DNA of 64,000 nt from a phage. Under the pieces are notes generated by a model. It worked only from the letters and a program-made list of their open reading frames with translations. It ran no database searches and was not told the origin of the DNA. The DNA lies in assembly GCA_037431425.1 (NCBI GenBank), contig GCA_037431425.1_4129.1. One strand, given 5' to 3'. The translations under genes were made by a program, and so were the position numbers. Of the stretch, positions 1 through 64,000 are shown in pieces (the first letter of the stretch is position 1; each line of letters begins with the position of its first letter).

Positions 1-31
1 TTATGTATTATATGCATATTGAGGACTGATT

Positions 32-862
32 ATGTCATTGGAAAAATTAATCATTTCCGAATTCCGAAAGTACATCATGGATTGTGATAGAGATATCCAG
101 CGTAAATTCAATGAGTATCTTGACAAATATCCATATTTGATGTTTAATCCATTTGAAACTCAAACCGATGTCAAACTTGGATTTTACATTGGGTTTACTC
201 AACGAATTCTACAACAATATGAGATGAAACAAGCAGAGGTTTGGGTAGAAACTGATTCGAATGAGACGAATGTTTTTTACCTGTACTCTTATTATGCGGA
301 AATTGTTAGTTCAATGACACTAGAAGGGTATCTATTCGTCAAAACATCTGATATTGAAAAAATATACATAGAACCTGTATCTTTGGATATGGTTGCCCAG
401 CTTCCAACTATCCAGCAAATGGATGCGAATGAATTAACATATTCAGTATTTGAGTACCTTAATAGAGATGATTTAACTCAAGAAATTGAGAATATGGTTG
501 CATCATATACTTCAACTCTTATATCTAATGGTTCACTTAGAATAGAACTGATTTACGACGATACTAGTACTAATGCAGTACGAGGTACTCGAATTGGAAA
601 AGTTACTATACGTGTTGTCCACAATGATGTAGTACTTGGTTATATTTCGAAACGTGGTCATGACTTGTGTATGATTAACGCATATGTTATTGACCGAAAA
701 GAATGGAACGATTTAATGCAAAAAATCGTAGACGGAAGTGGAATTCGTGATATAATGAGTAATGAAACAGTGATAATTAATCCTGATATTGACTGTGATG
801 TATATTTTCCAGTTCCTGGATTTACACTACGTAATTTTGGTAAATTAAAGGATACAAAATGA
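32..862 (+). CDS. hypothetical protein (276 aa)
   Basis: Long track ORF; stop overlaps next start at 859. Confidence 0.6.
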   Translation: MSLEKLIISEFRKYIMDCDRDIQRKFNEYLDKYPYLMFNPFETQTDVKLGFYIGFTQRILQQYEMKQAEVWVETDSNETNVFYLYSYYAEIVSSMTLEGYLFVKTSDIEKIYIEPVSLDMVAQLPTIQQMDANELTYSVFEYLNRDDLTQEIENMVASYTSTLISNGSLRIELIYDDTSTNAVRGTRIGKVTIRVVHNDVVLGYISKRGHDLCMINAYVIDRKEWNDLMQKIVDGSGIRDIMSNETVIINPDIDCDVYFPVPGFTLRNFGKLKDTK

Positions 863-1149
863 AAATTTTAGAAGTTTTACTTGAAAAAGATGCATCTGGT
901 ACTCTTTATGTTGGTAATGATTTCAGTCCTGATCCAATTGATATGATGCAGCGTATTCAATCACTGACCCAATCAATTTCAGTTAAACAACCTTTCCTAA
1001 AAGAATTGGAAATTCATTGCGATAAAGACATGGAGCAGCATGATAATGTTATTTCTGATATCAAAAATCTGTTGACAAAGAACGGATATGTGGAGTATAA
1101 TCCTCCTATCGTAATCGTTATCCCTGGCTTCATGAGAGGAACATTGTAA
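859..1149 (+). CDS. hypothetical protein
   Basis: Track ORF; ATG at 859 after aaagga; co-oriented compact array. Confidence 0.55.
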   Translation: MKILEVLLEKDASGTLYVGNDFSPDPIDMMQRIQSLTQSISVKQPFLKELEIHCDKDMEQHDNVISDIKNLLTKNGYVEYNPPIVIVIPGFMRGTL

Positions 1150-1418
1150 TGACGAAAGAAGAAATGAAATCTCGCTTAAGCGAACTGAAGAAAGAACGCA
1201 AACTAGTCCGTTTGGACTGGGACATTCTTAACAAAAAAGATGAGCAATCATATGCTAATTGGAGTTCTGATAAAGTTCGCAATGAACGTAGTAAAGAAGA
1301 CAACAAACAGTTTATGGCACTGTCCAAGCGTTTATCTGCATTAAATAGTGAAATTACAGGTCTACAGAAAGAAATTATTTCGATTTTACGAGATGAGATT
1401 AAATCACTATATGAATAA
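1149..1418 (+). CDS. hypothetical protein, charged/coiled-coil-like
   Basis: Track ORF; start overlaps previous stop. Confidence 0.55.
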   Translation: MTKEEMKSRLSELKKERKLVRLDWDILNKKDEQSYANWSSDKVRNERSKEDNKQFMALSKRLSALNSEITGLQKEIISILRDEIKSLYE

Positions 1419-1707
1419 ACATGAAGTATTAGTATTAGATAATAAATTCTATGTACCAAATAATGATAGTACTGAAACATATTATCTAATTAATAAAATT
1501 ATGACTGAAACTAATACTTGTTGTCGTCAAATCCCAGGAAAATATGAGTTCAGTCAGTCTATTGGCTATTATCGTTATAATCCATTGGAATCATTTACAA
1601 TTGACGTGTTGAAAGTTATTGACATTCTTGTACAGAATGGGTATAATGAAAAACATGTAAATAACTCAGAATTACCAGTTTCAAAAATCGTTATTTCTAA
1701 TAATTAG
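1411..1707 (+). CDS. hypothetical protein
   Basis: Track ORF 1348..1707; start moved to in-frame ATG 1411 (ATGAATAA overlap with upstream stop). Confidence 0.5.
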   Translation: MNKHEVLVLDNKFYVPNNDSTETYYLINKIMTETNTCCRQIPGKYEFSQSIGYYRYNPLESFTIDVLKVIDILVQNGYNEKHVNNSELPVSKIVISNN

Positions 1708-1709
1708 AG

Positions 1710-1738
1710 TTGGATAATAACAGATGATGTGATATAAT
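1710..1738 (+). promoter_or_regulatory. sigma70-type promoter (TTGGAT-N17-TATAAT)
   Basis: Read directly from sequence; precedes ORF 1821. Confidence 0.5.
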
Positions 1739-1820
1739 GTTTTTATCGGCAGATGTTAAAATGCAAACCATTCCTCAATGATGAGGGTTTTTCATTAAAA
1801 AGAAATAAAAGGGTATTAAA

Positions 1821-2030
1821 ATGGCTAAAGAAATTCACGCACAAGTACTAGATATCACCGACTTCGACCGCACTGTGAACTACATTCAATTCCAGATTCA
1901 TCAAGCTGAAGAAGCTCTTGCTGCATTCCATGGTACTGGTGCAAGGCCAATCCGTTTTGCTCACCTAGTTGCATGGAAGAAAAGTCTACAAGAAGAACTG
2001 TCTGAAATGCGTAAAGCAAATCGTAAGTAA
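1821..2030 (+). CDS. hypothetical small protein
   Basis: Track ORF between promoter at 1710 and terminator hairpin at 2039. Confidence 0.55.
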   Translation: MAKEIHAQVLDITDFDRTVNYIQFQIHQAEEALAAFHGTGARPIRFAHLVAWKKSLQEELSEMRKANRK

Positions 2031-2038
2031 TCTGTTTT

Positions 2039-2067
2039 CGCCCCATCAATTCTGGTGGGGCATTTTA
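2039..2067 (+). terminator. rho-independent terminator
   Basis: GCCCCATCAATTCTGGTGGGGC hairpin followed by ATTTT. Confidence 0.6.
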
Positions 2068-2093
2068 ATCACATAAATCAAGAGGATTAACAC

Positions 2094-2600
2094 ATGAGTA
2101 TCGAGTATTGGTTTTTGTTTGTGTGTATTGGAACACTTGCATTAATTACAATTGGATTAATTTTTAATACAATGATTACTGGAAGTAAGTACTTTAAAAC
2201 ATTCCAGCTTTTAATGTCAGCTATGCCATATAGTGCAGAAGCCGAAAAAACAATTTCTCTAATTTTAGATAAGTTCGATGCAAATCTGTTAGTTGCGAAA
2301 ATTTCGGATTGTGATACAAATATGGTATTTTATTCTACCGTCGATGAATCAGGTTCAAAATATGACAAATGTACATCTCCTATAGTTGCTGAAATTTTTA
2401 TTGGTTCAAAATATTATGCTTACGGGTATGTAAGAAAATATTATTCCGAAGCAAAAGCTGAGTTGACGAAGAAACGCCCATCGGTAAAAACATTAAAACG
2501 TATCATTGCGTTGGAAAATAAACTTCGTGGAGAAATTAATACAAATGAACCACCATCAGTAATTAAATCAAAAAATAATATTGTCGTGGAGTTAGAATGA
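2094..2600 (+). CDS. hypothetical membrane protein
   Basis: Track ORF; hydrophobic N-terminus; SD aagagga upstream. Confidence 0.55.
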   Translation: MSIEYWFLFVCIGTLALITIGLIFNTMITGSKYFKTFQLLMSAMPYSAEAEKTISLILDKFDANLLVAKISDCDTNMVFYSTVDESGSKYDKCTSPIVAEIFIGSKYYAYGYVRKYYSEAKAELTKKRPSVKTLKRIIALENKLRGEINTNEPPSVIKSKNNIVVELE

Positions 2601-2601
2601 G

Positions 2602-2889: not shown

Positions 2890-2967
2890 AATATTCAATA
2901 AGAGAATTAATGAGTTATTAAATAGTTAGAGATCAAAACACATACATTCGCAGTTACGTCAAAAATC

Positions 2968-3003
2968 ACTTTATATTACCCAGTACTAGTACTGGGTATT
3001 TTT
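2968..3003 (+). terminator. terminator-like hairpin
   Basis: CCCAGTACTAGTACTGGG palindrome followed by TATTTTTAT. Confidence 0.5.
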
Positions 3004-3016
3004 ATAAGGATATAAA

Positions 3017-3409: not shown

Positions 3410-3456
3410 GTGCAATGAAACTCAGATATAATACTATGACTTACTAAGGAGAACAT

Positions 3457-6114: not shown

Positions 6115-6239
<125 letters not shown>

Positions 6240-6843: not shown

Positions 6844-7284
<441 letters not shown>

Positions 7285-7622: not shown

Positions 7623-7661
<39 letters not shown>

Positions 7662-8023: not shown

Positions 8024-8390
<367 letters not shown>

Positions 8391-8401
<11 letters not shown>

Positions 8402-8420
8402 TATTCAGTACTGATATAAT
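8391..8420 (+). promoter_or_regulatory. sigma70-type promoter (TGGACA-N18-TATAAT) upstream of tRNA-Ser(GCU)
   Basis: CAGTACTG then TATAAT, 7 nt before the tRNA 5' end. Confidence 0.55.
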
Positions 8421-8426
8421 TAATTT

Positions 8427-20760: not shown

Positions 20761-21726
20761 GTGAAAAAACTTGATTTGAATACAATTGCAGATGAAGTTC
20801 TGGATGAATGCTTTGGTAATGAAGAAGTGAATACGCTGGATGCGTTAGAACCAGTTCAAGAAAAAGATAACATTGACGAGAAAAATAATGGTAATTTCAA
20901 GTTTAATATTAGTCTTAAGCGACCAGCAAATGTAACAAATGAAGATATTATTCGTGATATTCAAGCAGGTATTAACGTAAAGAAAAATACTGAACTATTA
21001 GTTCGTTATAATTACGGTTTGATTATTGATGTTGCAAGTAAATGCACGTGTTATATTCCATTTGAAGATAAGATTTCATATGGCATTGAGGGATTCATGC
21101 GAGCATTAAAAACATTTGACCTTAGTAAGAATGTAAAGTTCGCTACGTATGCATCGTCAAGTATCTATATGACTGTATACAATGAAAGCTCAGATGCTAA
21201 TCATCTGGTCCACTTCCCTCGTTACATGAGTGTTAATAAGATACAAGTGAAACGCTTCTGTCATAATTATGAGCGTCAGCATGGTTGTCGTCCTACACCT
21301 GAAATTATTTCTGAAGAGACTGGTATTGAAATCCAGCACGTTAAGAATTGTTTATTATTCCAAAGTGAATATACTTCACTGGATGCACCATTGGATGGTG
21401 TTTCTGATGGGACGATGAGTGATATTCTGCATTCATCTGAAGGTGATTATAATCTTAATGTTGACAGTATTCGTGCACCGTTGCGTTATACCATCAACGA
21501 ACTAACTAATGAGTTGAGTGCTAAGGAATGTGAGATTATTCAACGTGTTCATGGATTAGGTGAATTTAATCCTGAAACACTACGTGAAATTGCTGATAGT
21601 GGTTTTATTGATGACAATGGTAAGTGTGTAAAATCCAGATCTTCGGTTCATCGTAAATACAGTGATGCTCTTAAGAAACTCAAGAAATTAGTGCTCGCTA
21701 AAGGGTACGAATACGAAGATTTCTAA
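20761..21726 (+). CDS. sigma70-family RNA polymerase sigma factor
   Basis: Region-2-like stretch LLVRYNYGLIIDVASK...GIEGFMRALKTFD...KFATYASSSI and region-4-like HTH near the C-terminus (ECEIIQRVHGL...TLREIA...KYSDALKKLKK); GTG start with strong SD aggagaag; terminator follows. Confidence 0.75.
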   Translation: MKKLDLNTIADEVLDECFGNEEVNTLDALEPVQEKDNIDEKNNGNFKFNISLKRPANVTNEDIIRDIQAGINVKKNTELLVRYNYGLIIDVASKCTCYIPFEDKISYGIEGFMRALKTFDLSKNVKFATYASSSIYMTVYNESSDANHLVHFPRYMSVNKIQVKRFCHNYERQHGCRPTPEIISEETGIEIQHVKNCLLFQSEYTSLDAPLDGVSDGTMSDILHSSEGDYNLNVDSIRAPLRYTINELTNELSAKECEIIQRVHGLGEFNPETLREIADSGFIDDNGKCVKSRSSVHRKYSDALKKLKKLVLAKGYEYEDF

Positions 21727-24138: not shown

Positions 24139-24166
24139 TTGACATAAGATATCAGTACTGTATAAT
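24139..24166 (+). promoter_or_regulatory. sigma70-type promoter (TTGACA-N16-TATAAT)
   Basis: Consensus; CAGTACTG immediately upstream of -10. Confidence 0.7.
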
Positions 24167-36724: not shown

Positions 36725-36752
36725 TTGACAAACAGATTTAGTACTGTATAAT
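36725..36752 (+). promoter_or_regulatory. sigma70-type promoter (TTGACA-N16-TATAAT)
   Basis: Consensus; TAGTACTG immediately upstream of -10. Confidence 0.7.
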
Positions 36753-39987: not shown

Positions 39988-41205
39988 ATGGATAAAAATA
40001 TGATCTTCGAAACTGAAAAAACATTACTTGAAACTTACACTTTGGATAATCTAGTTAAACTTAACCTTGAACGACCAGATATCCAACGCAATTGGCAATG
40101 GAAAAATAATAACCAAAACAATCTTATTATTTCCATTCTAAAGAATTCTCCAATTGGTCAATTTTTAGTATGGAATGAAACTAGTTCAAATACGATGTAC
40201 ATCACTGATGGTCGTCATCGCTATACAGTAATTTCAAACTTCATGAACAATAAATTCCCAGTCACTGTTAGAACTGAAGATGGGACTAAGGATTATTATT
40301 ATGGTTCTGATGATCCAGTAGAAGAAGAAAGCATTTCACTGAAACTTGGTGGAAAGCGTAAAACATGGGATTTTTTATCTAAAGAAGAGCGTGATGCTTT
40401 TCGTGCAAAGGAAGTATCAGTAACATTCGTTCATACAGACGATGCTGAAAAGATTTCAGATATGTTTATTGCAATTAATACTGCATCATCTAATCTATGT
40501 AAAGTTGATTTGTTAGTATGTAAGCACCACACAAATACATATATGAAACGTATTGATAAGCTATTTTCAATTGAGTTTGGCAAAGATGAACCCATGGCAG
40601 CATTAGTGAGTGATTTTTACCGTGCAATCGGTCATTGTTGTGTTAATGGTAATCATGAGAAACACTTATCGAAGCTTAAAGCTAACCCTAAAGTACAGAA
40701 GCGTGAATTTTTTGAAATGTTCTTTATGGTCAAAGCGTTCGCGAAATTATGTGCTAGTGCACTAGATGGTAAGCTAAACTCATACCGTATGCCAAAGATG
40801 AACCAACAAATTGAAGAAGCAATTATTAGTACTGAATCTCTTAGTGAGAAACATGCTGATGCTGATTTTGTTCAGTTTGTTAATGCAGTTCGTGAGATGA
40901 ATTTGGTATCACCTGTAAAATCTGCACAAAAATTTCAATTTATCCATGAAGATATGAAGAATACCTTTAATAAGAGACTCTTTTGTATTTTGATGGGATT
41001 GTTTTATGCTTATGGTACAAGATTGCCATTACATTTTCGTGATGTATGGGGTGACATTTATAATGAAATGTCAGAAAAAAGTTCAGAACTACCTACTAAT
41101 GGAACCGATAGTCCTTCCGCAATTTTAGCTGGCATTGAAATGATTGAACCATACTTTAGTTCAGCATTTAATAATATTCCATTGAGTGCTTACGTGGGAA
41201 AGTGA
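39988..41205 (+). CDS. DUF262/ParB-like nuclease-domain protein (GmrSD N-terminal-like)
   Basis: N-terminal PDIQRNWQW and DGRHR motifs resemble the DUF262 signature (QR..W and DGQQR); stop overlaps the GTG start of the next HNH ORF. Confidence 0.6.
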   Translation: MDKNMIFETEKTLLETYTLDNLVKLNLERPDIQRNWQWKNNNQNNLIISILKNSPIGQFLVWNETSSNTMYITDGRHRYTVISNFMNNKFPVTVRTEDGTKDYYYGSDDPVEEESISLKLGGKRKTWDFLSKEERDAFRAKEVSVTFVHTDDAEKISDMFIAINTASSNLCKVDLLVCKHHTNTYMKRIDKLFSIEFGKDEPMAALVSDFYRAIGHCCVNGNHEKHLSKLKANPKVQKREFFEMFFMVKAFAKLCASALDGKLNSYRMPKMNQQIEEAIISTESLSEKHADADFVQFVNAVREMNLVSPVKSAQKFQFIHEDMKNTFNKRLFCILMGLFYAYGTRLPLHFRDVWGDIYNEMSEKSSELPTNGTDSPSAILAGIEMIEPYFSSAFNNIPLSAYVGK

Positions 41206-46556: not shown

Positions 46557-46601
46557 TAAAAATCCAGTACTATTAAGTACTGGATTATTTGAGGTAGAGC
46601 A

Positions 46602-48484: not shown

Positions 48485-48503
48485 GCCAGTATCAAGTACT
48501 GGT
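48485..48503 (-). terminator. intergenic hairpin between RCC1-like paralogs
   Basis: CCAGTA-TCAAG-TACTGG preceded by A-run on + (T-run on - strand). Confidence 0.55.
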
Positions 48504-48509
48504 ATTTTA

Positions 48510-49859
48510 TTATTGTAATGGAATTTCAGTGAGTGTTTTATATGTACTTCCGTTATACACCCCTCTCCAATATACTTTACCATCAGTACTAACCACTAAT
48601 AATCCATATGTTGTAAACCCAAGAGTACCACCAACATACATAGCATCTTTGATTCTAATACCAATGTCTTCATATGTAAATGACGCGACTGCACCCGCTT
48701 GCCATGAAGGACTAGCGTAGTAATCACTATAAACACCATGTGCTTTATATATTGATGTTGTTCCTGGTTCAAAAATGACAGTTCCACAGTAGTTCATTCG
48801 TATTTTAGTACTGGATGAAGTTGGTACATTTATACCTACATCATCTTTTATCCCTGTGGTTAGGACGTTAAAACCACCCGCCACACGGTTGACGTCATTC
48901 GCACCGATTAAATACATACCAACGTTGTAGCCCATATAAAACACACTAGAGCTTCCATTCCAGAAAGAAAAACCACCACCATTCCCACAGCGATATAGTT
49001 GTGAATTTGAGCAGTACATCATACCTTCGTTTGTCGCATCAAATTCATCTGCTTTTCCTATTGTAGCTACAGTAGTCCAAGTTTTAATTACTTGGTTTGT
49101 ACTAGCTGGTGTTTGTATACCATATCGTATATTATACCCTTTACCGACTATTGTACCATCTTCTAATTTGGCATAAAGTACAGGTCTATTACCAACAAAA
49201 TACATATTATTGTGTGACATGTCTATTGTGCATCTTAATGAAACTACTTTTTGTTTCAATTGATTATCTTTAGTAAAAGAAGTAAAGTAGTAATCTGATG
49301 TTGAGTTGTTTATTAAACCTTGTATTGACAACCCCATATACCAGATTTCTCCCTTACTATTCAAAGCTGCCAAAATACAACTATATTTTGAAGTGTATGT
49401 TGGGTTTACTGAAGTTGCTGGTCCTTTGTCATATCCACCACAGAATACCATCTCCACAACTTCACCTACGTTAGCAAAATAAGAAGATACATTGATAAAA
49501 CCATTTGTTATAAAAGGTGCTGTATTTATACTTGAATGTGTGAATATCCCATTTGCATATACACCACAAAAATGATATGAACCATCATTATCTTGGACTA
49601 TTATTCCATTTGATAGTAACCAAAAATTGTTTACATTTTTTCTTACTAATTCGATTCCTGCCCCATTAGTTGGCGTTATACCAAAAGAAACATATTTTGT
49701 TTGACCAATTCCATATAAATTTCCATTTGATGCTAATATTGCACCAAACCAATTACCACCACCATTCTTGTTATGACCCATACCTATAGAATCAAATTTC
49801 TTAACAGTAGGAGCTTGTACTTTGTTCCCATAATTCACCATTCTTCCAAAAGGTAACAT
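48510..49859 (-). CDS. RCC1-like repeat protein, paralog 2 (449 aa)
   Basis: Conserved N-terminus MLPFGRMVNYGN; upstream aaggaggg SD and TATAAT; terminator hairpin. Confidence 0.7.
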   Translation of the reverse strand: MLPFGRMVNYGNKVQAPTVKKFDSIGMGHNKNGGGNWFGAILASNGNLYGIGQTKYVSFGITPTNGAGIELVRKNVNNFWLLSNGIIVQDNDGSYHFCGVYANGIFTHSSINTAPFITNGFINVSSYFANVGEVVEMVFCGGYDKGPATSVNPTYTSKYSCILAALNSKGEIWYMGLSIQGLINNSTSDYYFTSFTKDNQLKQKVVSLRCTIDMSHNNMYFVGNRPVLYAKLEDGTIVGKGYNIRYGIQTPASTNQVIKTWTTVATIGKADEFDATNEGMMYCSNSQLYRCGNGGGFSFWNGSSSVFYMGYNVGMYLIGANDVNRVAGGFNVLTTGIKDDVGINVPTSSSTKIRMNYCGTVIFEPGTTSIYKAHGVYSDYYASPSWQAGAVASFTYEDIGIRIKDAMYVGGTLGFTTYGLLVVSTDGKVYWRGVYNGSTYKTLTEIPLQ

Positions 49860-49906
49860 ATTTCCCTCCTTTATTCATTATACTATATTTAATACTAAAA
49901 GAAAAA

Positions 49907-49925
49907 GCCAGTACAGAGTACTGGC
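49907..49925 (-). terminator. intergenic hairpin between RCC1-like paralogs
   Basis: GCCAGTAC-AGA-GTACTGGC; T-run on - strand. Confidence 0.6.
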
Positions 49926-49931
49926 ATTATT

Positions 49932-51083
49932 TTAAATTGGTGAATCTTCAACAAATATAGTACTAGCAGTACCACCTGATACTGGGTTAGTACCACTTGA
50001 ATATATTTTGTTTCCATCTGTCATATATGTTTTACCATAGCAACTTTGGATTTTAACATCTTTGAAATTCAAATCAGGAGTAATAGATTTAGTGTAAGTT
50101 AATACGTTAGTAGTTGAACCTGTACTTAATTGTCCATAGTATGAAGTTGCAGAGTTATTACCAGCAACGTATACGCCAGTATCAGTAATAACAAAGTTCG
50201 AGTAATATCCGTACCCATATCCTATATCTAATATATTTCCTTGTGGTTGATTTACCACTGCTGTTGTCAATATTTGGGTTGTAGCCCCAGTACCAGTCGC
50301 TGCCTGACCATATGTTTGGTCACCACCTGTGTACACTGAAACAACTGACGTGCTTTTGTTTCTTGCAATACCTTGCACCATTCCATTAATTGTACTTATA
50401 AATGCAATAGTGTTAACAGTTGCTGGTAATCTGGATGACAATGTGAAGAATTTATAAGAAGTAGGACCGTCAGTGTTCCCATAAACTTCACCTGTGTAAT
50501 ATAATCTACCACTTTCAGCAATAAATGAACACATGTTTATACCTGCAATAATCCTTTTCGGTATCGCACCAGTTGGTATAATTGATTGTACTAAAGTAGA
50601 AAAACTACTAGTATAAGAATAATTACCAAGCTGTCCTCTTGTGTTATAACCACCACACCAAATGGTCCCATTACTCATAAGTATTGAAATGAAGTTATTT
50701 CCTAGTGATATTTCTGTAATTGTTCCTTGTGATTTGACTTGGTTAATAACGGTTTGCATAGAAGTCCATGCATTAACAGATGACGTACCCATACACACAT
50801 TGTATTGTTGTCCTGTGTATTGATATGTCCCATCTGACTTGTGAATCATTGTAGCATACTGACCACACCATACATCAGTGACATCAGATGCAGTTACAGT
50901 CCATGATGATCTGGCTATATTGTCACCTAAACCCAACTGACCATTTGAATTGTTACCACGGGTGTATAACTTACCATTACTACCCAATACCATAACCCAG
51001 TTATACCCTGCAACTAATTTTTTAATGGCAGCAGGGGATGGTGCAACATTCCCATAATCAAACATTCTAACAAAAGGTAACAT
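49932..51083 (-). CDS. RCC1-like repeat protein, paralog 3
   Basis: N-terminus MLPFVRMFDYGNVAP; repeats such as GNNSNGQLGLGDN. Confidence 0.7.
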   Translation of the reverse strand: MLPFVRMFDYGNVAPSPAAIKKLVAGYNWVMVLGSNGKLYTRGNNSNGQLGLGDNIARSSWTVTASDVTDVWCGQYATMIHKSDGTYQYTGQQYNVCMGTSSVNAWTSMQTVINQVKSQGTITEISLGNNFISILMSNGTIWCGGYNTRGQLGNYSYTSSFSTLVQSIIPTGAIPKRIIAGINMCSFIAESGRLYYTGEVYGNTDGPTSYKFFTLSSRLPATVNTIAFISTINGMVQGIARNKSTSVVSVYTGGDQTYGQAATGTGATTQILTTAVVNQPQGNILDIGYGYGYYSNFVITDTGVYVAGNNSATSYYGQLSTGSTTNVLTYTKSITPDLNFKDVKIQSCYGKTYMTDGNKIYSSGTNPVSGGTASTIFVEDSPI

Positions 51084-51130
51084 ATTTCCCTCCTTTATTC
51101 ATTATACTATATTTAATACTAAAAGAAAAA

Positions 51131-51150
51131 GCCAGTACTTGAGTACTGGC
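51131..51150 (-). terminator. intergenic hairpin between RCC1-like paralogs
   Basis: GCCAGTACTTGAGTACTGGC; T-run on - strand. Confidence 0.6.
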
Positions 51151-51157
51151 TTTCTTA

Positions 51158-52348
51158 TTACAATTTTCTAGGTGTATCCAGAACATATCTATTTGTTTTA
51201 GGGCCACCATCATCATAAGTTCCGGTTGAATATATATTTTTCATATCAGCAGTTAGGAAAGTACGCAACGAACCGCGATATATTTTTATTTTATCATACA
51301 TAGAATATGTTATTTCTGACGGCAATGGACATGCAGTAAATTTACCAATGGTAGCATCATAACCAACACCCAATGTACCAGCATAACTACTCGCATTTAA
51401 ACCAGTTGCATATACACCTGCACTCGTAACTAGTATACTAGATTGTGCTGGGTATCCAGTATGGATTGAATAATAAGTACCAGGTGGCAATGTGGCACTA
51501 TTATTTCCTAAAACTCCATTAACATTGCTAGATGTAGTTTTATTTCCCCATGCTCCATTATTAGCTAATCCACCAACTAGAAACTGACGTGCTCCTGTAC
51601 TTGGATTCTCTACTAAAGCACTGACAGCACCAAATGAACAAACAGTATATTGTAATGTTTTTGTATATGTGGTACTTGGCTGATATAAAGTATATTCATT
51701 AAATGGTGTCCATGTGGTACTAGTACTTATGCCAGATGTAATACCACCAATATATAAATTATTTTGTTTATCAAACAACATTACACAGTTATATGTTGAC
51801 ATTATTTGTGCAATATCAACATCTGGTGTTACAGCTTTAACAAATGAGCCATCGGTTATTTGTTGAGTTTTTCCAGTACCATCTGCGAATTGTCTAGCAC
51901 TATTCCACCCTGTACTCCATATTGTATTATTATCCATTAAGAAAGTAAACCACGTAGTACCTGCATACATTTGTTTAATTGAAGTACTTGAACTTTGTTT
52001 GTACAAATTTTCAATATATTGGTTATAACTTAAAAACGTAGTAGTACTAGTTTCTAAACCAATATGACTACCATATCCACAATAAAAATAATTTAAGTCA
52101 TTATCTTGAACTAACAAAGTTCCTTGTGTCATCCAGCAATCTTTGATATTTTCTCTAATTAATGTCCACGACCTTACTGCATTATTATTTCCTCTACCAA
52201 ACTTCCCCCAACTATTACTGCCTCGTGCGTATAGTTGACCGTCGGTATAAAGTACAACAACCTCAGTATCAGTTGGTATTATTTTCTTAATTTGAAGTGG
52301 GACGGGTACAATATTCCCGTACTTAACTATTCTTCCAAAAGGTAACAT
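51158..52348 (-). CDS. RCC1-like repeat protein, paralog 4
   Basis: N-terminus MLPFGRIVKYGNIVP; repeat GSNSWGKFGRGNN. Confidence 0.7.
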   Translation of the reverse strand: MLPFGRIVKYGNIVPVPLQIKKIIPTDTEVVVLYTDGQLYARGSNSWGKFGRGNNNAVRSWTLIRENIKDCWMTQGTLLVQDNDLNYFYCGYGSHIGLETSTTTFLSYNQYIENLYKQSSSTSIKQMYAGTTWFTFLMDNNTIWSTGWNSARQFADGTGKTQQITDGSFVKAVTPDVDIAQIMSTYNCVMLFDKQNNLYIGGITSGISTSTTWTPFNEYTLYQPSTTYTKTLQYTVCSFGAVSALVENPSTGARQFLVGGLANNGAWGNKTTSSNVNGVLGNNSATLPPGTYYSIHTGYPAQSSILVTSAGVYATGLNASSYAGTLGVGYDATIGKFTACPLPSEITYSMYDKIKIYRGSLRTFLTADMKNIYSTGTYDDGGPKTNRYVLDTPRKL

Positions 52349-52391
52349 ATCCCCTCCTTATTCATTATACTATATTTAATCAAAAATAAAA

Positions 52392-52410
52392 GCCAGTATC
52401 AAGTACTGGC
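52392..52410 (-). terminator. intergenic hairpin between RCC1-like paralogs
   Basis: GCCAGTATCAAGTACTGGC. Confidence 0.6.
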
Positions 52411-52424
52411 ATAGTTTTATAATA

Positions 52425-53531
52425 TTATTTCGGCATCGTAATTGCAGACCATGAATTTGTAGTAATTGGACCTGGTATGTACACTAAAGAACCACATGCA
52501 TAAATTTGTCTATTCCCATCATACACAACACTAAAGTTAGTACAAGTAAACAATGACGAATTTAATGGATTGTAAGTATCTAATGTTAGTGTATTCACCC
52601 ACTTATTTGAACCTAGACCACCTGACCTACCAAATGCACCAGTACTGTATATCTTACCTTCAGTTGTTGCATATATATTAACATATGAAGTTGAACTGGA
52701 TTTAGCTATTTTATGTATCTTACTATCAATAGCACTGGAGTTAAATGTAAAAGGATATATTTCTACGTTAGTTGATGAACCATTACCGAGTTGACCAGAA
52801 TACTGCAAGCCAGCGACGTATGTACCACCACCTGAATATGCTATAGTACTAGTACTGTTACCTCCCATTATTTTAACACTAGTTAAACGACTTACTAAAG
52901 TAGTGTACTGACCTTTACTAACACCTAGTGAACCATAACTACTAGTACCACATCCAATAAGGTTACCGTTGGATGTTAAGATTAATGTGTTGTTTTGTGT
53001 ACCATATATATCAGCAACTTCATTTGTACCAGTATTCAGTACTAACACAAAAGCACTCTGTGAATTAGGATATCCACCACCGAGTGAATAGTTACTGTTC
53101 ATGCCTCTTCCATAAACCTTTGTACCACTAGCATCTACGTAGTGCATCGTATCTGAACCAATTGATATCATTTTAATATTAGATATGTGTGGAAATGAAG
53201 AAGTAACATCTAAACCACCCAAGGGGATTGCAGTATTACCCGTACCTAACTGAGAAGTAACTCCGTGCATTCTGAACTCTTCTCCTTTGAGATACAGAAG
53301 ATTGTACCCACCAGCCCATGCATCAGAAACACCCTCTGCAACTAATATCCAATTATTTTTTTCCGCTGTACCAACGGCATTCAACTGCCAATATGAATTA
53401 TCTCCACATCCATATAATGTACCATCACTATATAGTACGTACAAATTATTGGTTCCACAAAATACTTTCTTGATCGTTATACCTTCTGGAGCTATATTTC
53501 CATAGGTCATTATTCTTGCAAAAGGTAACAT
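52425..53531 (-). CDS. RCC1-like repeat protein, paralog 5
   Basis: N-terminus MLPFARIMTYGNIAP; repeat GDNSYWQLN. Confidence 0.7.
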   Translation of the reverse strand: MLPFARIMTYGNIAPEGITIKKVFCGTNNLYVLYSDGTLYGCGDNSYWQLNAVGTAEKNNWILVAEGVSDAWAGGYNLLYLKGEEFRMHGVTSQLGTGNTAIPLGGLDVTSSFPHISNIKMISIGSDTMHYVDASGTKVYGRGMNSNYSLGGGYPNSQSAFVLVLNTGTNEVADIYGTQNNTLILTSNGNLIGCGTSSYGSLGVSKGQYTTLVSRLTSVKIMGGNSTSTIAYSGGGTYVAGLQYSGQLGNGSSTNVEIYPFTFNSSAIDSKIHKIAKSSSTSYVNIYATTEGKIYSTGAFGRSGGLGSNKWVNTLTLDTYNPLNSSLFTCTNFSVVYDGNRQIYACGSLVYIPGPITTNSWSAITMPK

Positions 53532-53576
53532 ATCCCCTCCTTATTCATTATACTATATTTAATACAAATAAGAAAA

Positions 53577-53595
53577 GCCAGTATCAAGTACTGGC
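53577..53595 (-). terminator. intergenic hairpin between RCC1-like paralogs
   Basis: GCCAGTATCAAGTACTGGC. Confidence 0.6.
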
Positions 53596-53601
53596 CTATA
53601 T

Positions 53602-54771
53602 TTAAACTGGCGAATCTAATATAAATTCTAAACTACTAATGCCACCATATGTGACATCTGTTCCCGTGCTATATACAAAATTACCATCAGTTATATAAGT
53701 TCGGTTATAACTACCTGCCATCTGTGACTTACTATAATCAAACCCATCAGGTACGATTGCTTTGGTATATACTAATGCATTAGTAGATGTACCAATACCT
53801 AACATACCAGCTTGTGTAGATTGATTGTAGCCGCAACAATATATACCATCTGTTGTAGCAATAACTTGGTTATAATATGAAGTATTGTTAGCAATGCTTA
53901 CTACATCACCAGGTGGCATTAGTGATGCTGTTTGTACCTCAAATGCTCTATAATCTTTGAGAGAACCATCTTTCCCATCTGCTTGTGCACCAAATATTCT
54001 TGAACCACCATTTGCGATGATAGTTTTACCAGTAGGATCAGTGCCTATTGCCATTGCCATTGAAGTACCATTATTCACATAGTACTTTATATTAATTGTA
54101 TTACTTAAGCTGGTAGGAGCACCATAATATATATTATATAACTTACTTCCTGAACTTGTAACTGCATTGACTCTTCCTGTATAAAATAACCATCCTTGGT
54201 TTGTAACATAACCGTGCATTAAATTACTTGCAAACAATTTAACAGGTAATTGATTTGCTACGGTAGGAACAGTACTTTTGACGAATCTACCAGAAACATA
54301 GTTAATTGTTGTTCCATCACCCAACTGACCATCCGACCCTACTCCAGTACTCCATATTGTTTGGTCTGATAGTAACACACTTGTAGTCTGATAACTAATG
54401 GCTATATCTAATATTGGTAATGTTAATGTATTGAATATAGGCATAGCAGATGTCCATATTGATACTCCTGACCCTTTCATACCAACAGTTGTTGAACTTC
54501 CACTGTACCATATTTCATTATTGCTTTTCTTAACAACTATCGACGTGGCTCCCATCCAAAAATCTTCAACACCAGAAGTACTAAAAGTCCATGTAGTAAC
54601 AGTATTTTTGTGACCTAAACCCAAAATACCATATGCATTATCACCACGCACATATAAATCACCACTGTTTGTTAAAACAGCAACATTATCGTTGTTAGCA
54701 AGTATTTTTTTAATATTTGGTTTAGCAGGTGCAATATTCCCGTACTTAACCATCCTCGCAAAAGGTAACAA
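53602..54771 (-). CDS. RCC1-like repeat protein, paralog 6
   Basis: N-terminus MLPFARMVKYGNIAP; repeat GDNAYGILGLGHKN. Confidence 0.7.
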   Translation of the reverse strand: MLPFARMVKYGNIAPAKPNIKKILANNDNVAVLTNSGDLYVRGDNAYGILGLGHKNTVTTWTFSTSGVEDFWMGATSIVVKKSNNEIWYSGSSTTVGMKGSGVSIWTSAMPIFNTLTLPILDIAISYQTTSVLLSDQTIWSTGVGSDGQLGDGTTINYVSGRFVKSTVPTVANQLPVKLFASNLMHGYVTNQGWLFYTGRVNAVTSSGSKLYNIYYGAPTSLSNTINIKYYVNNGTSMAMAIGTDPTGKTIIANGGSRIFGAQADGKDGSLKDYRAFEVQTASLMPPGDVVSIANNTSYYNQVIATTDGIYCCGYNQSTQAGMLGIGTSTNALVYTKAIVPDGFDYSKSQMAGSYNRTYITDGNFVYSTGTDVTYGGISSLEFILDSPV

Positions 54772-54816
54772 AATTAAATCTCCAAAATTAAAATAATTAT
54801 ATAGTATTTACAAAAA

Positions 54817-54842
54817 TACCAGTACATATTTCAGTACTGGTA
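54817..54842 (-). terminator. intergenic hairpin between RCC1-like paralogs
   Basis: TACCAGTAC-ATATTTCA-GTACTGGTA. Confidence 0.55.
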
Positions 54843-54847
54843 TATTA

Positions 54848-60426: not shown

Positions 60427-60467
60427 AAATGCGATCACCAGGATTCTCTCCAGGCTAAACACCGTAG

Positions 60468-60535
60468 TCATAAGTAATCATAAGTAATCATATATAAACA
60501 TTTATATGAGCATTTATAAGCATTTATAAGCACCG
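60468..60535. repeat. short tandem repeats
   Basis: ATAAGTAATC x2 then ATTTATAAGC x2. Confidence 0.7.
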
Positions 60536-61027
60536 TAGAATCACAGAATGATTATATATGATTCAGTACTGCCCCAAAAGTATTCAGTACTGAAGAATTA
60601 CCCCTGAATGATTCAGTACTGATATGCCACTAAGTAGGCAGAGGAAGTCTGCCGTACTTTGTAGTTTCCAAGCTCCTTTTCCATTTTGCAAATTACATCA
60701 AATGTAATCAAAAGTAATCACGTAATGATTAGTACTGAAATATTAGTTTCATCTTTTTTCAAATACCTTTTTACCCTTCGGGGTAAATGTATTTTTACCC
60801 ATTTACCTTTGGGGTAAAATCCCATTACCCCTTGAGGCTCCAGCAAAAAGTTGGAAAGTACTCCATCCTAAATCTCGATCCTAAAAATTTTGGAGTACCT
60901 ATGAAATAAAAGTTGGATCTTCGAAAGTTGAAATTTACGTTGGGACGTTTATGATTTGTGGGATATAATGATGTTTGTAGTCGGGTAGTTCTCAAGAATA
61001 TCAGTACTGAATGGTGAAAGAAAGTTA

Positions 61028-61055
61028 TTGACATTATGATTCAGTACTGTATAAT
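61028..61055 (+). promoter_or_regulatory. sigma70-type promoter (TTGACA-N16-TATAAT) in the non-coding region
   Basis: Consensus; TTCAGTACTG immediately upstream of -10; no obvious ORF downstream. Confidence 0.55.
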
Positions 61056-61383
61056 GTTCTACATAGAGAGATGAGTTGCTGCGAACAATTCATTTACTCT
61101 ACCTCCTGTCGTGAGACAGTACAGAAAAGATAGTTCCTCCTGTGGTGGTACATCTTTTTGAACCTCATATGAAAATCGTAATAACAGTACTGGTATTAAC
61201 AGAATGGTATCAGTACTGACTTTAATCTAATACATTATACCACCAGCTTGTGCTGGTGGATTCCCTCTAACAGTATTCAGTACTACATGATAGTCTTCAT
61301 CCTCCTAGGGTAACATAGTGAGGGCTATTGTGGGAGTACTGAATACTCCTTTCAAAAGATAGAATAATGGTATAGTACCGACG

Positions 61384-62000
61384 GATTTTGGGCGTAGTTA
61401 CCCTGGGTGTATTTTGGACGTAGATATGTCTAGCCCTCCAGAAGTCTGGAAGTAAAGATGGCTATCTATCTAGACGGCTAAACGGCTAGATTTCTAGATG
61501 GCTGTATGGCTAGACGTTTGGATGGCTAAACGGCTAAACGGCTAGATGGTTACACGTCTGGAAGTATAGACGGCTAAATCAAAATTTTTATTTTGTTTTT
61601 CCAATAGTTCCCCTACCGCGTGAGGATATTTTTTCCCCGCAGTATCTGGAGTTAGATTTTTCTGAATCTGGAATCATTATCTAATAAACTGGGGGCAATG
61701 TCAACCGCCTGGATGAATATTTTTAAAAAATAATCTAGTACTAAATTTTGGGCGTAACTATGCACCCGGTGGGCTTGAGTCTTTCTCGACTTGATGAAAT
61801 AATTATATCAGTACTGAAAAAATAAAGCAATACCCTAAACGCAAAAAAAATTTAATTAATTTGCTTGCTATTCTGGGCCGTACTATGGTACTATTAATTC
61901 AGTACTGAGAAAGTGCTTTTACCTGCTAGGGTGCGGGAGTGTATCCTTTTTAAATTTTATGAATTTTGGGCAGATCTCCGCACCCTGTGGGTTAGTGCCT
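61384..62000. repeat. dispersed copies of ATTTTGGGCG...CACCC(G/T)GTGGG element
   Basis: Copies near 61384, 61745, 61958, with a partial copy at 63940. Confidence 0.55.
61441..61575. repeat. iteron-like cluster of degenerate short repeats
   Basis: At least 8 copies of GGCTA(A/G/T)ACGG / ATGGCT(A/G)T units bracketed by CCAGAAGTCTGGAAGTA and CACGTCTGGAAGTAT. Confidence 0.75.
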
Positions 62001-62204
62001 TGTGTCCGGCTTATGTAGTAATTATACGCTTTTTCAGTACTGAGTCAATACCTAAAAACAAAATAATTGAAAATAATTTAACGCGTTTAAACGGCCCGTA
62101 AAGCCCTGGAATGATTAGAATGGTGCAAATGTATAGCTTAGGTGTAATATCTCGTTAGAATGCGACTGAGGCCGTTTTACGGGGTATAGGGATGATTTAG
62201 TGGA

Positions 62205-62296
62205 TTGATTCAGTACTGAATAATAGTACTCCTATATAGAAAGATAGTTCCCCTGGATGGTTGCAGTACTGAATAATAGTACTCCTATATAGAAAG
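62205..62296. repeat. direct repeat pair, about 38 bp
   Basis: CAGTACTGAATAATAGTACTCCTATATAGAAAGA occurs twice about 50 bp apart. Confidence 0.8.
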
Positions 62297-62329
62297 AAAA
62301 CTATTTTAAAAAGTATTTGTAGAAAGTAC

Positions 62330-62358
62330 TTGCACCGTACTGATAAAAGCGTATAATG
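62330..62358 (+). promoter_or_regulatory. promoter (TTGCAC-N17-TATAAT) plus conserved leader hairpin
   Basis: Followed by GAGAGCGGGAGCACTTCCCGCT stem-loop before ORF 62356. Confidence 0.6.
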
Positions 62359-62775
62359 TTTTACATCGAGAGCGGGAGCACTTCCCGCTACACATTAAGA
62401 GAGATTAAAACGATGGCGACTCAAATCAATAAAATTATTGCTAACCTGGTTAACTTCCGTGAAGAGATGAAAGGTCTTCCGGCTGAAACGGTAAAAATTC
62501 ACATTTCAGCTTATCGGGAACTTATTGCAATGTTACCGCTTAAGCGTGAACAATACGCCGCTACCGTGATGCTTGATGCGATGATCAATAAGATGATCGC
62601 CAGTGATTTAACGATGGTTTATCAGTACATGGGCGAAAATTTCGCGGTGTCTGGTAAGCCAGTACCAGGGATGGCAACTACTGAGGAATTGCACGGTTTA
62701 AATTTAAAACAAGATGCATGGGATAATATGCCTCGTTTCCTGGTATGGGCTGACAGTGGCAAAATTTACAAATAA
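62356..62775 (+). CDS. hypothetical protein (139 aa)
   Basis: Track ORF with own promoter 62330..62358 and leader hairpin; more G/C-rich codons than the rest of the window. Confidence 0.6.
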   Translation: MFYIESGSTSRYTLREIKTMATQINKIIANLVNFREEMKGLPAETVKIHISAYRELIAMLPLKREQYAATVMLDAMINKMIASDLTMVYQYMGENFAVSGKPVPGMATTEELHGLNLKQDAWDNMPRFLVWADSGKIYK

Positions 62776-62790
62776 GTTTAATAAAGTACT

Positions 62791-62819
62791 TGCCAACTAA
62801 GTTTAAAAGCGTATAATAC
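62791..62819 (+). promoter_or_regulatory. promoter (TTGCCA-N17-TATAAT)
   Basis: Same AAGCGTATAAT core as 62330 and 63496; leader hairpin GGGAAGTTTAAAAACTTCCC. Confidence 0.6.
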
Positions 62820-62896
62820 TTTACATCAGGTGCAACGGGAAGTTTAAAAACTTCCCTATAGGGGAATAGTTCCCCACTATATAAGAGGATTAAAAA

Positions 62897-63136
62897 ATGG
62901 CTAAATCAAAAATGTTCTTAGGTCACAAAAACAAAACTCATTGGAATGTAAGCCTTTGGATTAATAACGATGAATCATTATACCGGTTGGCCCTGGACTT
63001 TATTGCCGCTAATACTAATCGCAATGATGCGGCCCGTCATATGATGTTATTTTTAGAACAGACTGGACAAGATAAAACACCGGACGGATTCAAATATAGC
63101 ACTACTGCGATCCGTGCGGCGATGGTTGGAATGTAA
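62897..63136 (+). CDS. hypothetical small protein
   Basis: Track ORF with own promoter 62791..62819; SD agagga. Confidence 0.6.
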   Translation: MAKSKMFLGHKNKTHWNVSLWINNDESLYRLALDFIAANTNRNDAARHMMLFLEQTGQDKTPDGFKYSTTAIRAAMVGM

Positions 63137-63150
63137 TAGAATTTATTTAA

Positions 63151-63184
63151 AGTACTATCGCAAAAAATGATAGTACTTTATAAT
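63151..63184 (+). promoter_or_regulatory. palindromic operator-like site (AGTACTATC-N9-GATAGTACT) overlapping a -10 TATAAT
   Basis: Perfect 9-bp inverted repeat flanking a 9-bp spacer, ending at the TATAAT at 63179. Confidence 0.45.
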
Positions 63185-63221
63185 AGTGTTTTATTCATAC
63201 ACCAACGATAAGGGCAATAGC

Positions 63222-63488
63222 ATGAATATTAAGTATTTTGCGACGCGTGAACAAGCTCGGAAGGCGGCGAAAGTGGAAGGTGCAACGTTTAAAGATATGG
63301 GCATACAATCGGAACGTGGTAAACGTTGGGCCATTGTAAAGCGTAGTACAGCCAGATCATTACAGTACTGGTTAGCGGCTTTAAAAAGTCCTGCTAGTGT
63401 ATCGCGTCGAGTGGTAGAAATAAAGCTCGACCGTAAGGGGAATCGTGTTACCGTGTACCGTACTAAAAAGATAGCAGTACTTGAATAA
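63222..63488 (+). CDS. hypothetical basic protein
   Basis: Track ORF 63186..63488 starts upstream of the predicted TSS; ATG 63222 after aaggg is preferred. Confidence 0.5.
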   Translation: MNIKYFATREQARKAAKVEGATFKDMGIQSERGKRWAIVKRSTARSLQYWLAALKSPASVSRRVVEIKLDRKGNRVTVYRTKKIAVLE

Positions 63489-63495
63489 AAAGAAC

Positions 63496-63523
63496 TTGCA
63501 AACTATGTTTAATGGCGTATAAT
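63496..63523 (+). promoter_or_regulatory. promoter (TTGCAA-N16-TATAAT) plus conserved leader hairpin
   Basis: Followed by GAGAGCGGGAACACTTCCCGCC, near-identical to the leader at 62370. Confidence 0.6.
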
Positions 63524-63575
63524 GTTTTACATCGAGAGCGGGAACACTTCCCGCCTATAAACTGGAGTAATAAAA

Positions 63576-63806
63576 ATGACTAATATGTATATGACTGAAG
63601 TTAAAACCGTAAAAGATACTACCACGAATAAAACTACTTACTTACAGCGGATCTGCGGTGTATGGCAACGTATCAGCAAATCAAAGTACTATAAATTAAC
63701 ATCATATGCCAATCGTTCGGATTCATTCAGTACTGAAATAAAAGGTAATAAAGTACACCAATACGGCACTTATTATTATTATAGCCTGGACGCGATTGCA
63801 GTATAA
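63576..63806 (+). CDS. hypothetical small protein
   Basis: Track ORF with own promoter 63496..63523 and leader hairpin. Confidence 0.55.
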   Translation: MTNMYMTEVKTVKDTTTNKTTYLQRICGVWQRISKSKYYKLTSYANRSDSFSTEIKGNKVHQYGTYYYYSLDAIAV

Positions 63807-63836
63807 GTAGTTTACAAATCTTTACAATTGCCGGTA

Positions 63837-63865
63837 TTGACTTAAAATGTCAGTACTGGCATAAT
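63837..63865 (+). promoter_or_regulatory. sigma70-type promoter (TTGACT-N17-CATAAT)
   Basis: Contains CAGTACTG; near the window end. Confidence 0.45.
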
Positions 63866-64000
63866 GTATCTATTGAAACGAACAATTTGGCCCACGGGGT
63901 GCGGGAGTGTATCTATAGCAAAATTAGTTTAGTATAATTACAATTGTGCACCCGGTGGGTTAGCTGTTGTCATGGGGTATATTATGCCAGTACTTGATAA

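Follow-up and report, generated by a model that had tools for sequence, protein, structure and literature searches.

Why should a phage genome carry one six-letter word far more often than its composition predicts, within genes as well as between them? The question is raised by the palindrome AGTACT in a 64-kb stretch of phage DNA (positions 1 to 64,000 of contig GCA_037431425.1_4129.1; hereafter, the window), which has a G+C content of 33.7% and is part of an Asteriusvirus-like jumbo coliphage. The window shares 96–98% nucleotide identity with phage ph0011 and ≈87% with PBECO4, 121Q, UE-S1, and phAPEC6. An original prediction, made by inspection of the window, had described AGTACT as an abundant element of regulatory DNA and a probable binding site for a dimeric protein. 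We find that selection at the DNA level maintains the hexamer throughout the genome and throughout the RaK2-like phage lineage, and that phased copies of it occupy two landmarks, an array of three to six copies at the left boundary of the terminal repeat and a set of early sigma-70-type promoters. The reading that we favor, with a probability of about one half, is that AGTACT would be the site of a lineage-specific, phage-encoded dimeric protein that binds double-stranded DNA in a sequence-specific manner, acts within the packaging signal, helps to control early promoters, and densely marks the phage DNA.

AGTACT is the most over-represented hexamer of the window

The window contains 184 copies of AGTACT, where base composition predicts 21.8 and dinucleotide-preserving shuffles (n = 100) give 19.3 ± 4.4, with a maximum of 32. 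This 8.4-fold excess makes it the most over-represented hexamer of the window (z ≈ 35), and the excess is stronger than had first been described. A fourth-order Markov model predicts 152 copies, but this is not a valid null expectation because the enriched 5-mers AGTAC and GTACT feed the model. The earlier estimate of roughly 19 copies between 60.5 and 62.3 kb proved exact, with 19 counted against ≈0.6 expected.

The strong excess is limited to the exact hexamer. Variants with one mismatch are enriched merely 1–2.4-fold, the neighbors that contain GTAC are mildly enriched, and CGTACG and GGTACC have no copies in the window at all. A 12-bp palindrome had been proposed as the recurring unit, but the full 12-mer TTCAGTACTGAA is present in just six copies, next to 15 copies of TCAGTACTGA and 43 of CAGTACTG; the conserved unit is the exact hexamer or, at most, an 8-mer. 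The copies are dispersed from 1 to 64000. Approximately 144 of the 184 (≈80%) stand alone, outside any promoter or hairpin, and the rest lie in promoters, in terminator stems, and in an array at the genome end. Two stretches of 3.3 and 2.4 kb are free of AGTACT, and neither is kept in UE-S1.

The window also lacks seven 6-bp palindromes entirely (GGTACC, CTGCAG, CAGCTG, TGGCCA, CGTACG, TCCGGA, and TGCGCA) and carries GATC at half its expected frequency, which is classic restriction avoidance. These gaps suggest that the phage DNA is largely unmodified, and against them the excess of AGTACT stands out further. A palindrome that is itself avoided under restriction is under-represented, whereas AGTACT is 8.4-fold over-represented.

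Selection acts on the DNA word within genes

The emphasis on regulatory DNA was too strong, as 77% of the copies fall in coding DNA and most are isolated hexamers within genes. The density is 5.3 per kb in non-coding DNA (41 copies) and 2.5 per kb in coding DNA, where 142 copies lie in open reading frames (ORFs). That coding regions hold the motif had been anticipated, and we find it in all three frames, used evenly on the + strand genes (43, 38, and 37 copies). The coding copies remain far above expectation once composition and codon usage are modeled, since synonymous-codon shuffling that keeps both the protein sequence and the codon usage yields 35.4 ± 5.7 copies against the 142 observed. 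No other 6-bp palindrome in coding DNA rises above such shuffles by z > 3.

The excess reaches into codon choice and into the proteins themselves. Ser-Thr dipeptides number 141 against 89 expected (1.6-fold), and 61 of the 141 are spelled AGT-ACT, where codon usage predicts 18.6. Tyrosine is encoded by TAC in 69% of cases after codons that end in AG and in 29% elsewhere. The tail-sheath gene, in which about one copy is expected, carries six in PBECO4, seven in GAP32, and 11 in the Yersinia phage fHe-Yen9-04, mostly at conserved Ser-Thr positions common to the genera; the orthologue in the Pseudomonas phage PA5oct has none.

A comparison of the window with UE-S1 (88% nucleotide identity) reveals how these sites are maintained. 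Whereas 71% of AGTACT sites are kept, the background is 51%, for all hexamers and for composition-matched hexamers alike. Each of the two genomes also has ≈15 private sites, and the substitutions that have removed AGTACT in UE-S1 are of mixed types. The retention above background, together with the private sites, argues that selection maintains the density while individual sites turn over.

The flanks of the hexamer are weak and two-fold symmetric. C is preferred at −1 and G at +1, whereas G at −1 and C at +1 are depleted approximately 3-fold on both sides, in late and core genes as well. In an alignment of 183 AGTACT sites, the information falls to ≈0 beyond ±3 bp, so AGTACT is not a dispersed repeat or a miniature mobile element. 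The symmetry of the flanks speaks for a symmetric dimer that reads the double-stranded DNA and not for an RNA signal. These features best fit a recognition site with two-fold symmetry, of the approximate form (T)(T)C-AGTACT-G(A)(A), with an invariant AGTACT core and with G at −1 and C at +1 disfavored.

Distances between sites, pooled over RaK2-like loci (the window, L001–L007, L010, L015, and L020–L034), show a sharp peak at 20 bp in two data sets (z = 7.3 and 13.7). A second favored spacing of 75–79 bp (36 pairs against 18 expected, z = 4.3) replicates weakly (23 against 13.8, z = 2.5), and most such pairs fall within unrelated coding sequence.

The excess follows a phage lineage and not a host

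An AGTACT excess of 4- to 15-fold extends across five relatives. Four 50-kb blocks of PBECO4, which include structural and replication genes, hold 94, 153, 181, and 72 copies where ≈17 are expected in each. The samples from the Klebsiella phage RaK2 and the Cronobacter phage GAP32 contain 247 and 114 copies (17 expected in both), and those from fHe-Yen9-04 and the Mimasvirus XbC2, whose annotated host is Xanthomonas, contain 58 and 99 (10 expected in both). PA5oct, a more distant relative, has one copy against 10 expected and four in its 40-kb terminal repeat, an rV5-like coliphage has five against 7.4, and a 50-kb sample of Escherichia coli K-12 has three against 11.6. AGTACT sites are thus ≈50 times denser in phage DNA than in host DNA, and because the excess tracks the phage lineage and not the host, it argues for a phage-encoded cause.

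No substitute palindrome was found in PA5oct; CTGCAG was considered as a counterpart, since one region has 14 copies against 2.3 expected, but it occurs only five times in the 40-kb terminal repeat and was rejected.

AGTACT arrays adjoin the mapped packaging boundary

The first landmark is the left end of the packaged genome. The Asteriusvirus phage fEgEco12 has direct terminal repeats of 20,993 bp, determined with PhageTerm and confirmed by restriction mapping (PMC13070987). Its position 1 aligns to window position 60633, which places the boundary at 60632|60633 and makes 60633–64000 (+ strand) the start of a ≈21-kb direct terminal repeat. Directly to the left of this physical end lie three TTCAGTACTG sites (60565, 60586, and 60615) followed by the conserved GATATGCCACTA, which together form a putative pac-like array at 60565–60632 on the + strand. 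The 25-bp junction at 60611–60635 is 100% conserved between Escherichia and Klebsiella phages, whereas the surrounding DNA cannot be aligned.

The same arrangement recurs at other ends. The genome of the Klebsiella phage Muenster, also mapped by PhageTerm, ends with ...AGTACTattcAGTACTattcAGTACTgatatgccacta and starts straight after it, with six AGTACT copies in the array. RaK2 has a Muenster-type junction with five copies, part of them at 20-bp spacing, and the Pectobacterium phage CBB, a Mimasvirus, has four within ≈120 bp, with the final copy 17 bp from the repeat boundary. The termini of fEgEco12, Muenster, and CBB were mapped independently and represent three genera, and each lies 12–17 bp to the right of an AGTACT array. 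A packaging signal had been offered only as an alternative to a site for a dimeric binding protein; these arrays support it directly. Short repeated elements beside a mapped terminase cut are characteristic of pac sites, and such elements number three in the window, five in RaK2, six in Muenster, and four in CBB.

Inside the boundary, the terminal repeat begins with a non-coding leader that holds 16 AGTACT copies up to 62.3 kb, after which the first small early genes follow. Two tandem copies of CAGTACTGAATAATAGTACTCCTATATAGAAAGA, with four AGTACT in total, occupy 62211–62297 (+ strand), upstream of the first terminal-repeat gene.

The genome end has several other features. A G+C-rich hairpin, GGCAGAGGAAGTCTGCC, at 60637–60653 begins 5 nt in from the left physical terminus. 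Short direct repeats that resemble iterons (ATAAGTAATC twice, GCATTTATAA twice, and the GGCTAAACGGCTAGAT type) lie at 60470–60530 and 61470–61560 and thereby flank the end, in the unique DNA to its left and in the non-coding leader ≈840 bp inside the repeat; an accessory role at an origin or in packaging is possible. Chi, the E. coli octamer GCTGGTGG, is found four times in the window, at 61240–61259, 36245, and 53308, where 0.37 copies are expected. An inverted Chi pair, CCACCAGCttgtGCTGGTGG, forms a hairpin ≈610 bp inside the left genome end, and in early and terminal-repeat regions the orientation of Chi is biased 7:1 in PBECO4 (L003) and 9:1 in RaK2 (L005). This excess and orientation bias suggest that the linear ends are shielded from RecBCD.

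AGTACT is built into early-type promoters

The second landmark is a subset of near-consensus sigma-70 promoters in which AGTACT begins exactly 9 bases past the −35 hexamer and abuts the −10 hexamer. They take the forms TTGACA-N9-AGTACT-G-TATAAT, -GA-TATAAT, and -GG-CATAAT, at 7253, 7633, 8392, 24139, 36725, 61028, and 63837. Copies of AGTACT upstream of a −10 hexamer had been noted before, and they are real at ≈7268, 7648, 8407, 24154, 36740, and 61043, 1–3 nt away from the positions first assigned to them; the copy at 36740 reads TAGTACTG and not CAGTACTG.

In many promoters, a further copy shares one base with the −35 hexamer (in brackets), as AGTAC[TTGACA], and the 20-bp spacing peak comes almost wholly from this two-site promoter. 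In the window, the design is found on the + strand at 7628–7661 (AGTAC[TTGACT]-N9-AGTACT-GA-TATAAT), with its sites 20 bp apart, and at 8387–8420 (AGTAC[TGGACA]-N9-AGTACT-GA-TATAAT), just upstream of the tRNA-Ser at 8426. Also on the + strand are TTGACT-N9-AGTACT-G-TATAAT at 7253–7280, TTGACA-N9-AGTACT-G-TATAAT at 24139–24166 and 36725–36752, and TTGACT-N9-AGTACT-GG-CATAAT at 63837–63865. A perfect-consensus promoter (TTGACA-N9-AGTACT-G-TATAAT) lies at 61028–61055, ≈400 bp inside the left genome end. Two further + strand promoters have AGTACT abutting the −35 hexamer: that at 62325–62357 (AGTAC[TTGCAC]) has a degenerate cGTACT in its spacer before TATAAT, and that at 62785–62817 reads AGTAC[TTGCCA]-N16-TATAAT.

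The promoter design AAAAGTACTTGcat-N8-tcAGTACTGTATAAT recurs in Asteriusvirus, RaK2, and fHe-Yen9-04. In IMG/VR, the pattern AGTACTTG-N12-AGTACTGTATAAT, which specifies 21 bases, is found almost only in contigs of 345–371 kb, fHe-Yen9-04 among them; the three other loci, on two 6.7-kb contigs and one 109-kb contig, are equally rich in AGTACT. We infer early activity of these promoters from their match to the sigma-70 consensus, from their clustering in the terminal repeat, and from RNA sequencing (RNA-seq) of the terminal repeat of PA5oct (PMC7318152).

An AGTACT copy also abuts the tRNA-Ser at 6153 (6147–6153), and the two-site promoter at 8387–8420 fronts the tRNA-Ser at 8426, so the phage tRNA clusters appear to be driven by the AGTACT promoter class. 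Other promoters of the window are free of AGTACT, as exemplified by the TTGACTtcggtcagcc cassette. A second type of promoter cassette, aaagggTTGACTtcggtcagccctttttg(t/c)TATAAT, likewise lacks AGTACT and occurs at 29863, 32657, 33995, 38907, 42311, and 42882. An intrinsic terminator contains its −35 hexamer within the stem, which makes it a combined terminator and promoter.

AGTACT forms terminator stems

Inverted pairs of the hexamer also form hairpins. There are 22 terminator-like sites against 8.2 in shuffles. The hairpin CCCAGTACTAGTACTGGG at 2979–2996 (+ strand), whose stem consists of two AGTACT copies, is followed by a T-run, and a further hairpin, AATCCAGTACT-atta-AGTACTGGATT, lies at 46561–46586 (no strand assigned). 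An array of seven RCC1-like genes on the − strand (47.3–56 kb) includes six intrinsic terminators after its genes (48485–54843, − strand) with stems GCCAGTAC(T)/(A)GTACTGGC. These terminators lie at 48486–48502, 49907–49925, 51126–51155, 52392–52410, 53575–53597, and 54816–54843, and their stems, CCAGTAC(T)/(A)GTACTGG, are built of AGTACT as had been described; the hairpins at 2979 and 46561 have stems of this make-up too. A scan with Rfam returned tRNAs only.

A phage-encoded dimeric reader is the favored explanation

A dimeric binding protein accommodates much of this evidence. At the boundary, it would form or help to form a pac-like complex that positions the terminase cut, and the small terminase would be one candidate for the protein that acts there. 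At the early promoters, binding at −38 and −15 would block RNA polymerase and could time or shut off early transcription; the paired sites, which are 20 bp or about two helical turns apart, bracket the −35 hexamer and abut the −10 hexamer, a placement that would suit an operator. The isolated hexamers (≈80% of the copies) may be kept by selection on density and would concentrate the reader protein on the phage DNA as a "self" mark, with terminator stems built from the motif as a possible cheap route to extra copies. Binding, the identity of the protein, and a benefit from the dispersed copies are in each case predictions from patterns in the DNA.

A search among the phage proteins for a reader, by Pfam scans and by distribution tests of candidates, found none. 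In 24 proteins scanned with Pfam (20 from ORFs of the window and four from PBECO4 genes), no DNA-binding domain was detected except in the sigma factor. This sigma-70-family protein, encoded at 20761–21726, has a distribution that matches the motif, as it is present in all AGTACT-rich genera and not in the Pseudomonas phages. We nevertheless rejected it as the reader, because it is implausible that a sigma element would be a palindrome and come with no −10 or −35 signal, and an alignment of all 183 sites shows no such signal; for the same reason we attribute the match to co-inheritance within the lineage. The XRE-type helix-turn-helix regulator beside the sigma gene was set aside as well, being confined to Mimasvirus. 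A 405-residue protein encoded at 39988–41205 has a GmrSD_N/DUF262 (ParB-like, DndB-like) domain and no nuclease domain. It fails the distribution test, since ph0011 and GAP32 (the latter at 22% identity) are the sole phages found to have it; the gene is accessory, and its product possibly has a role in defense or counter-defense. The gene upstream of the large terminase, a putative small terminase (PBECO4 gp501), is of unknown family in PHROGs.

Several further observations weigh against the reading that we favor, alongside this unsuccessful search. The gene for the putative small terminase could be detected in just two genera, Asteriusvirus and Alcyoneusvirus, and no AGTACT array lies at the right boundary of the terminal repeat. 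Restriction and modification enzymes, more than helix-turn-helix operators, typically have a contiguous and exact 6-bp core. The timing of the promoters is deduced from consensus, location, and RNA-seq of a different phage, PA5oct (PMC7318152), and in promoters with a 17-bp spacer the spacer copy of AGTACT has a further use, as the source of the TG in an extended −10 element, which could explain part of its conservation there. The original prediction of a dimeric binding site is supported by the symmetric flanks, the 20-bp spacing, and the fixed promoter positions, but an operator alone leaves the intragenic copies unexplained, and neither a pac nor an operator role gives a direct reason for selecting hundreds of isolated copies within genes.

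One way to account for those copies is a viral "self" mark of the RaK2-like jumbo phages, in which a single protein, possibly the small terminase or a phage chromatin protein, would nucleate at the phased array to set the packaging cut, close the strongest early promoters by bracketing their −35 hexamers, and coat or condense phage DNA in preference to host DNA through ≈900 sites per genome. We put this forward tentatively, as a possibility that we would still bet against. AGTACT does share the hallmarks of "self" motifs such as DNA uptake sequences, namely, a lineage-specific excess that includes coding DNA, a shift in codons and peptides, and inverted repeats in terminators.

Alternative explanations

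The best surviving alternative is that AGTACT is the target of a phage DNA-modifying enzyme, for example a Dam-family adenine methyltransferase (PF05869), whose mark would regulate early promoters and pac cleavage in a manner coupled to replication. An exact, palindromic 6-bp specificity is typical of modifying enzymes, and the array of hexamers at the boundary resembles the pac site of phage P1. An N6-adenine methyltransferase is indeed encoded (PBECO4 gp148, PF05869; PMC7247149; PMC11895373), and RaK2 DNA is reportedly methylated (PMC3622015). The methylation reported for RaK2 is confined to 5-methylcytosine in CpG, however, and AGTACT contains no CpG; moreover, the DNA of fEgEco12 was cut as predicted by 10 enzymes (PMC13070987). 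Protective methylation would also provide no reason to enrich its own target, and a C-to-T decay signature is absent, as AGTATT occurs 65 times against 44 expected and the substitutions in UE-S1 are mixed. We therefore regard modification as unlikely, although it overlaps with the binding-protein reading in that a reader protein would still be needed.

More doubtful is a site that a phage endonuclease cuts or nicks, at which breaks would start recombination-dependent replication or load late-transcription factors and of which the terminase cut would be a special case. The exact, enzyme-like specificity fits this idea, as do the fixed short distance between the terminase cut and an AGTACT copy and the presence in the genome of many HNH endonuclease genes and a UvsX/UvsY recombination system. 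Gene conversion should nonetheless remove cut sites instead of enriching them, ≈900 double-strand cut sites per genome would be hazardous, and neither assemblies nor restriction maps show a sign of fragmentation. The phased 20-bp pairs around the −35 hexamer likewise point to binding and not to cutting.

Recruitment of a host protein is very improbable. The chief candidate is the nucleoid-occlusion factor SlmA (site GTGAGTACTCAC), which would be drawn to the phage DNA and block cell division. SlmA-binding sequences (SBSs) share the AGTACT core, and the 12-bp palindrome GTRAGYRCTYAC that defines them requires G1, T2, A4, and G5 (PMC3020112). Cells infected with phage Sharanji filament, with DNA spread through the cell (PMC11895373), and the Pseudomonas relative PA5oct lacks the motif. 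We rejected this explanation because the flanks fit the SBS consensus worse than random ones and the host distribution does not match. The phage flanks are T/A, T, and C; GAGTACTC occurs just once in the window; and six AGTACT sites come within two mismatches of the SBS consensus where 16 are expected with random flanks. The excess is present in the Xanthomonas-annotated XbC2 and absent from the coliphage rV5, tracking lineage and not host.

Least credible of all is the view that the excess has no function and simply follows from the usage of codons or dipeptides, from biased mutation or repair, or from the multiplication of a repeat or promoter cassette: although motif-bearing promoter and terminator cassettes have multiplied and GTAC-containing neighbors are mildly enriched, this would not explain the equal use of frames, the 4-fold excess over synonymous shuffles, the amino-acid usage bent toward Ser-Thr, the lack of sequence information past ±3 bp, the ≈144 of 184 copies outside any cassette, the conservation of sites above background, or the phased arrays at the packaging boundary in three genera. 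A Chi-like recombination hotspot was rejected, since it needs an asymmetric motif with orientation bias, and AGTACT is palindromic with symmetric flanks.

Other features of the window

The window encodes ≈120 small genes, mostly on the + strand, and six tRNA genes. The second gene of the terminal repeat, an ORF at 62897–63136 that encodes 79 residues, belongs to no Pfam family and has 84–90% nucleotide identity with unrelated coliphages, namely, rV5-like Vequintavirinae, phAPEC8-like Phapecoctavirus, and Justusliebigvirus. From these matches, it looks like a small early gene that was exchanged recently.

Comparison with known systems

In the pac site of phage P1, hexamer repeats of TGATCA/G flank the pacase cut, and Dam methylation of the hexamers regulates cleavage. 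The AGTACT arrays are similar in that a cluster of one short (near-)palindromic hexamer lies directly beside the terminase cut. They differ in being one-sided and outside the terminal repeat, and in consisting of a hexamer that is enriched 8- to 15-fold genome-wide, genes included, and built into early promoters. The fixed 21-kb terminal repeats also differ from the headful permutation of P1.

DNA uptake sequences, known as DUS in Neisseria and as USS (uptake signal sequences) in Haemophilus, are short lineage-specific motifs, present about once per 0.3–1 kb, that mark "self" DNA for a DNA-handling machine. Like them, AGTACT reaches such a density, is tolerated in every reading frame of genes, where it affects the choice of codons and peptides, and often forms terminator stems as inverted pairs. 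Unlike them, it is a 6-bp palindrome in a virus, and its handling as a self mark, through a bias in packaging where theirs is in uptake, is a proposal here. The binding sequences of SlmA and Noc are likewise palindromic sites scattered over a chromosome and read by a dimer, and the core of the SlmA site is AGTACT itself. Those sites number ≈50 per 4.6-Mb chromosome, whereas AGTACT numbers ≈184 per 64 kb (≈900 per 350-kb genome), has flanks that do not fit SlmA, and is found in promoters and the pac region as well.

The phi29 protein p6 and the SPO1 protein TF1 are abundant proteins that favor phage DNA, repress early promoters, and act at genome termini; they recognize DNA shape or hydroxymethyluracil and not an exact hexamer. 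The likeness is one of proposed logic alone, that of one protein that would coat the genome, repress promoters, and act at the terminus. Chi (GCTGGTGG) resembles AGTACT as an over-represented short motif under genome-wide selection. It differs in being asymmetric, dependent on orientation, and read on single-stranded DNA by RecBCD, whereas AGTACT is palindromic.

We found no report of the AGTACT motif in the openly accessible full-text literature or in the papers on RaK2, CBB, phAPEC6, fEgEco12, Sharanji, and PA5oct. Dispersed DNA words under selection are already known; what AGTACT adds to them is a palindromic hexamer that is typical of an entire phage lineage and would serve in promoters and at pac sites too.

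Significance for large lytic phages

AGTACT is a diagnostic signature for this phage lineage in metagenomes. Its ≈900 copies per genome are also ScaI sites, so that, barring their modification, these phages are predicted to be extremely sensitive to restriction of the ScaI type. It is poorly understood how large lytic phages whose DNA is unmodified recognize their own DNA, stop their early genes, and define the ends of their 20-kb repeats. One exact hexamer bends the usage of codons and amino acids in 350-kb genomes of at least four genera, and it offers a handle on all three questions. If the "self"-mark reading is true, a single word of 6 bp would link the shut-off of transcription to genome recognition and to packaging.

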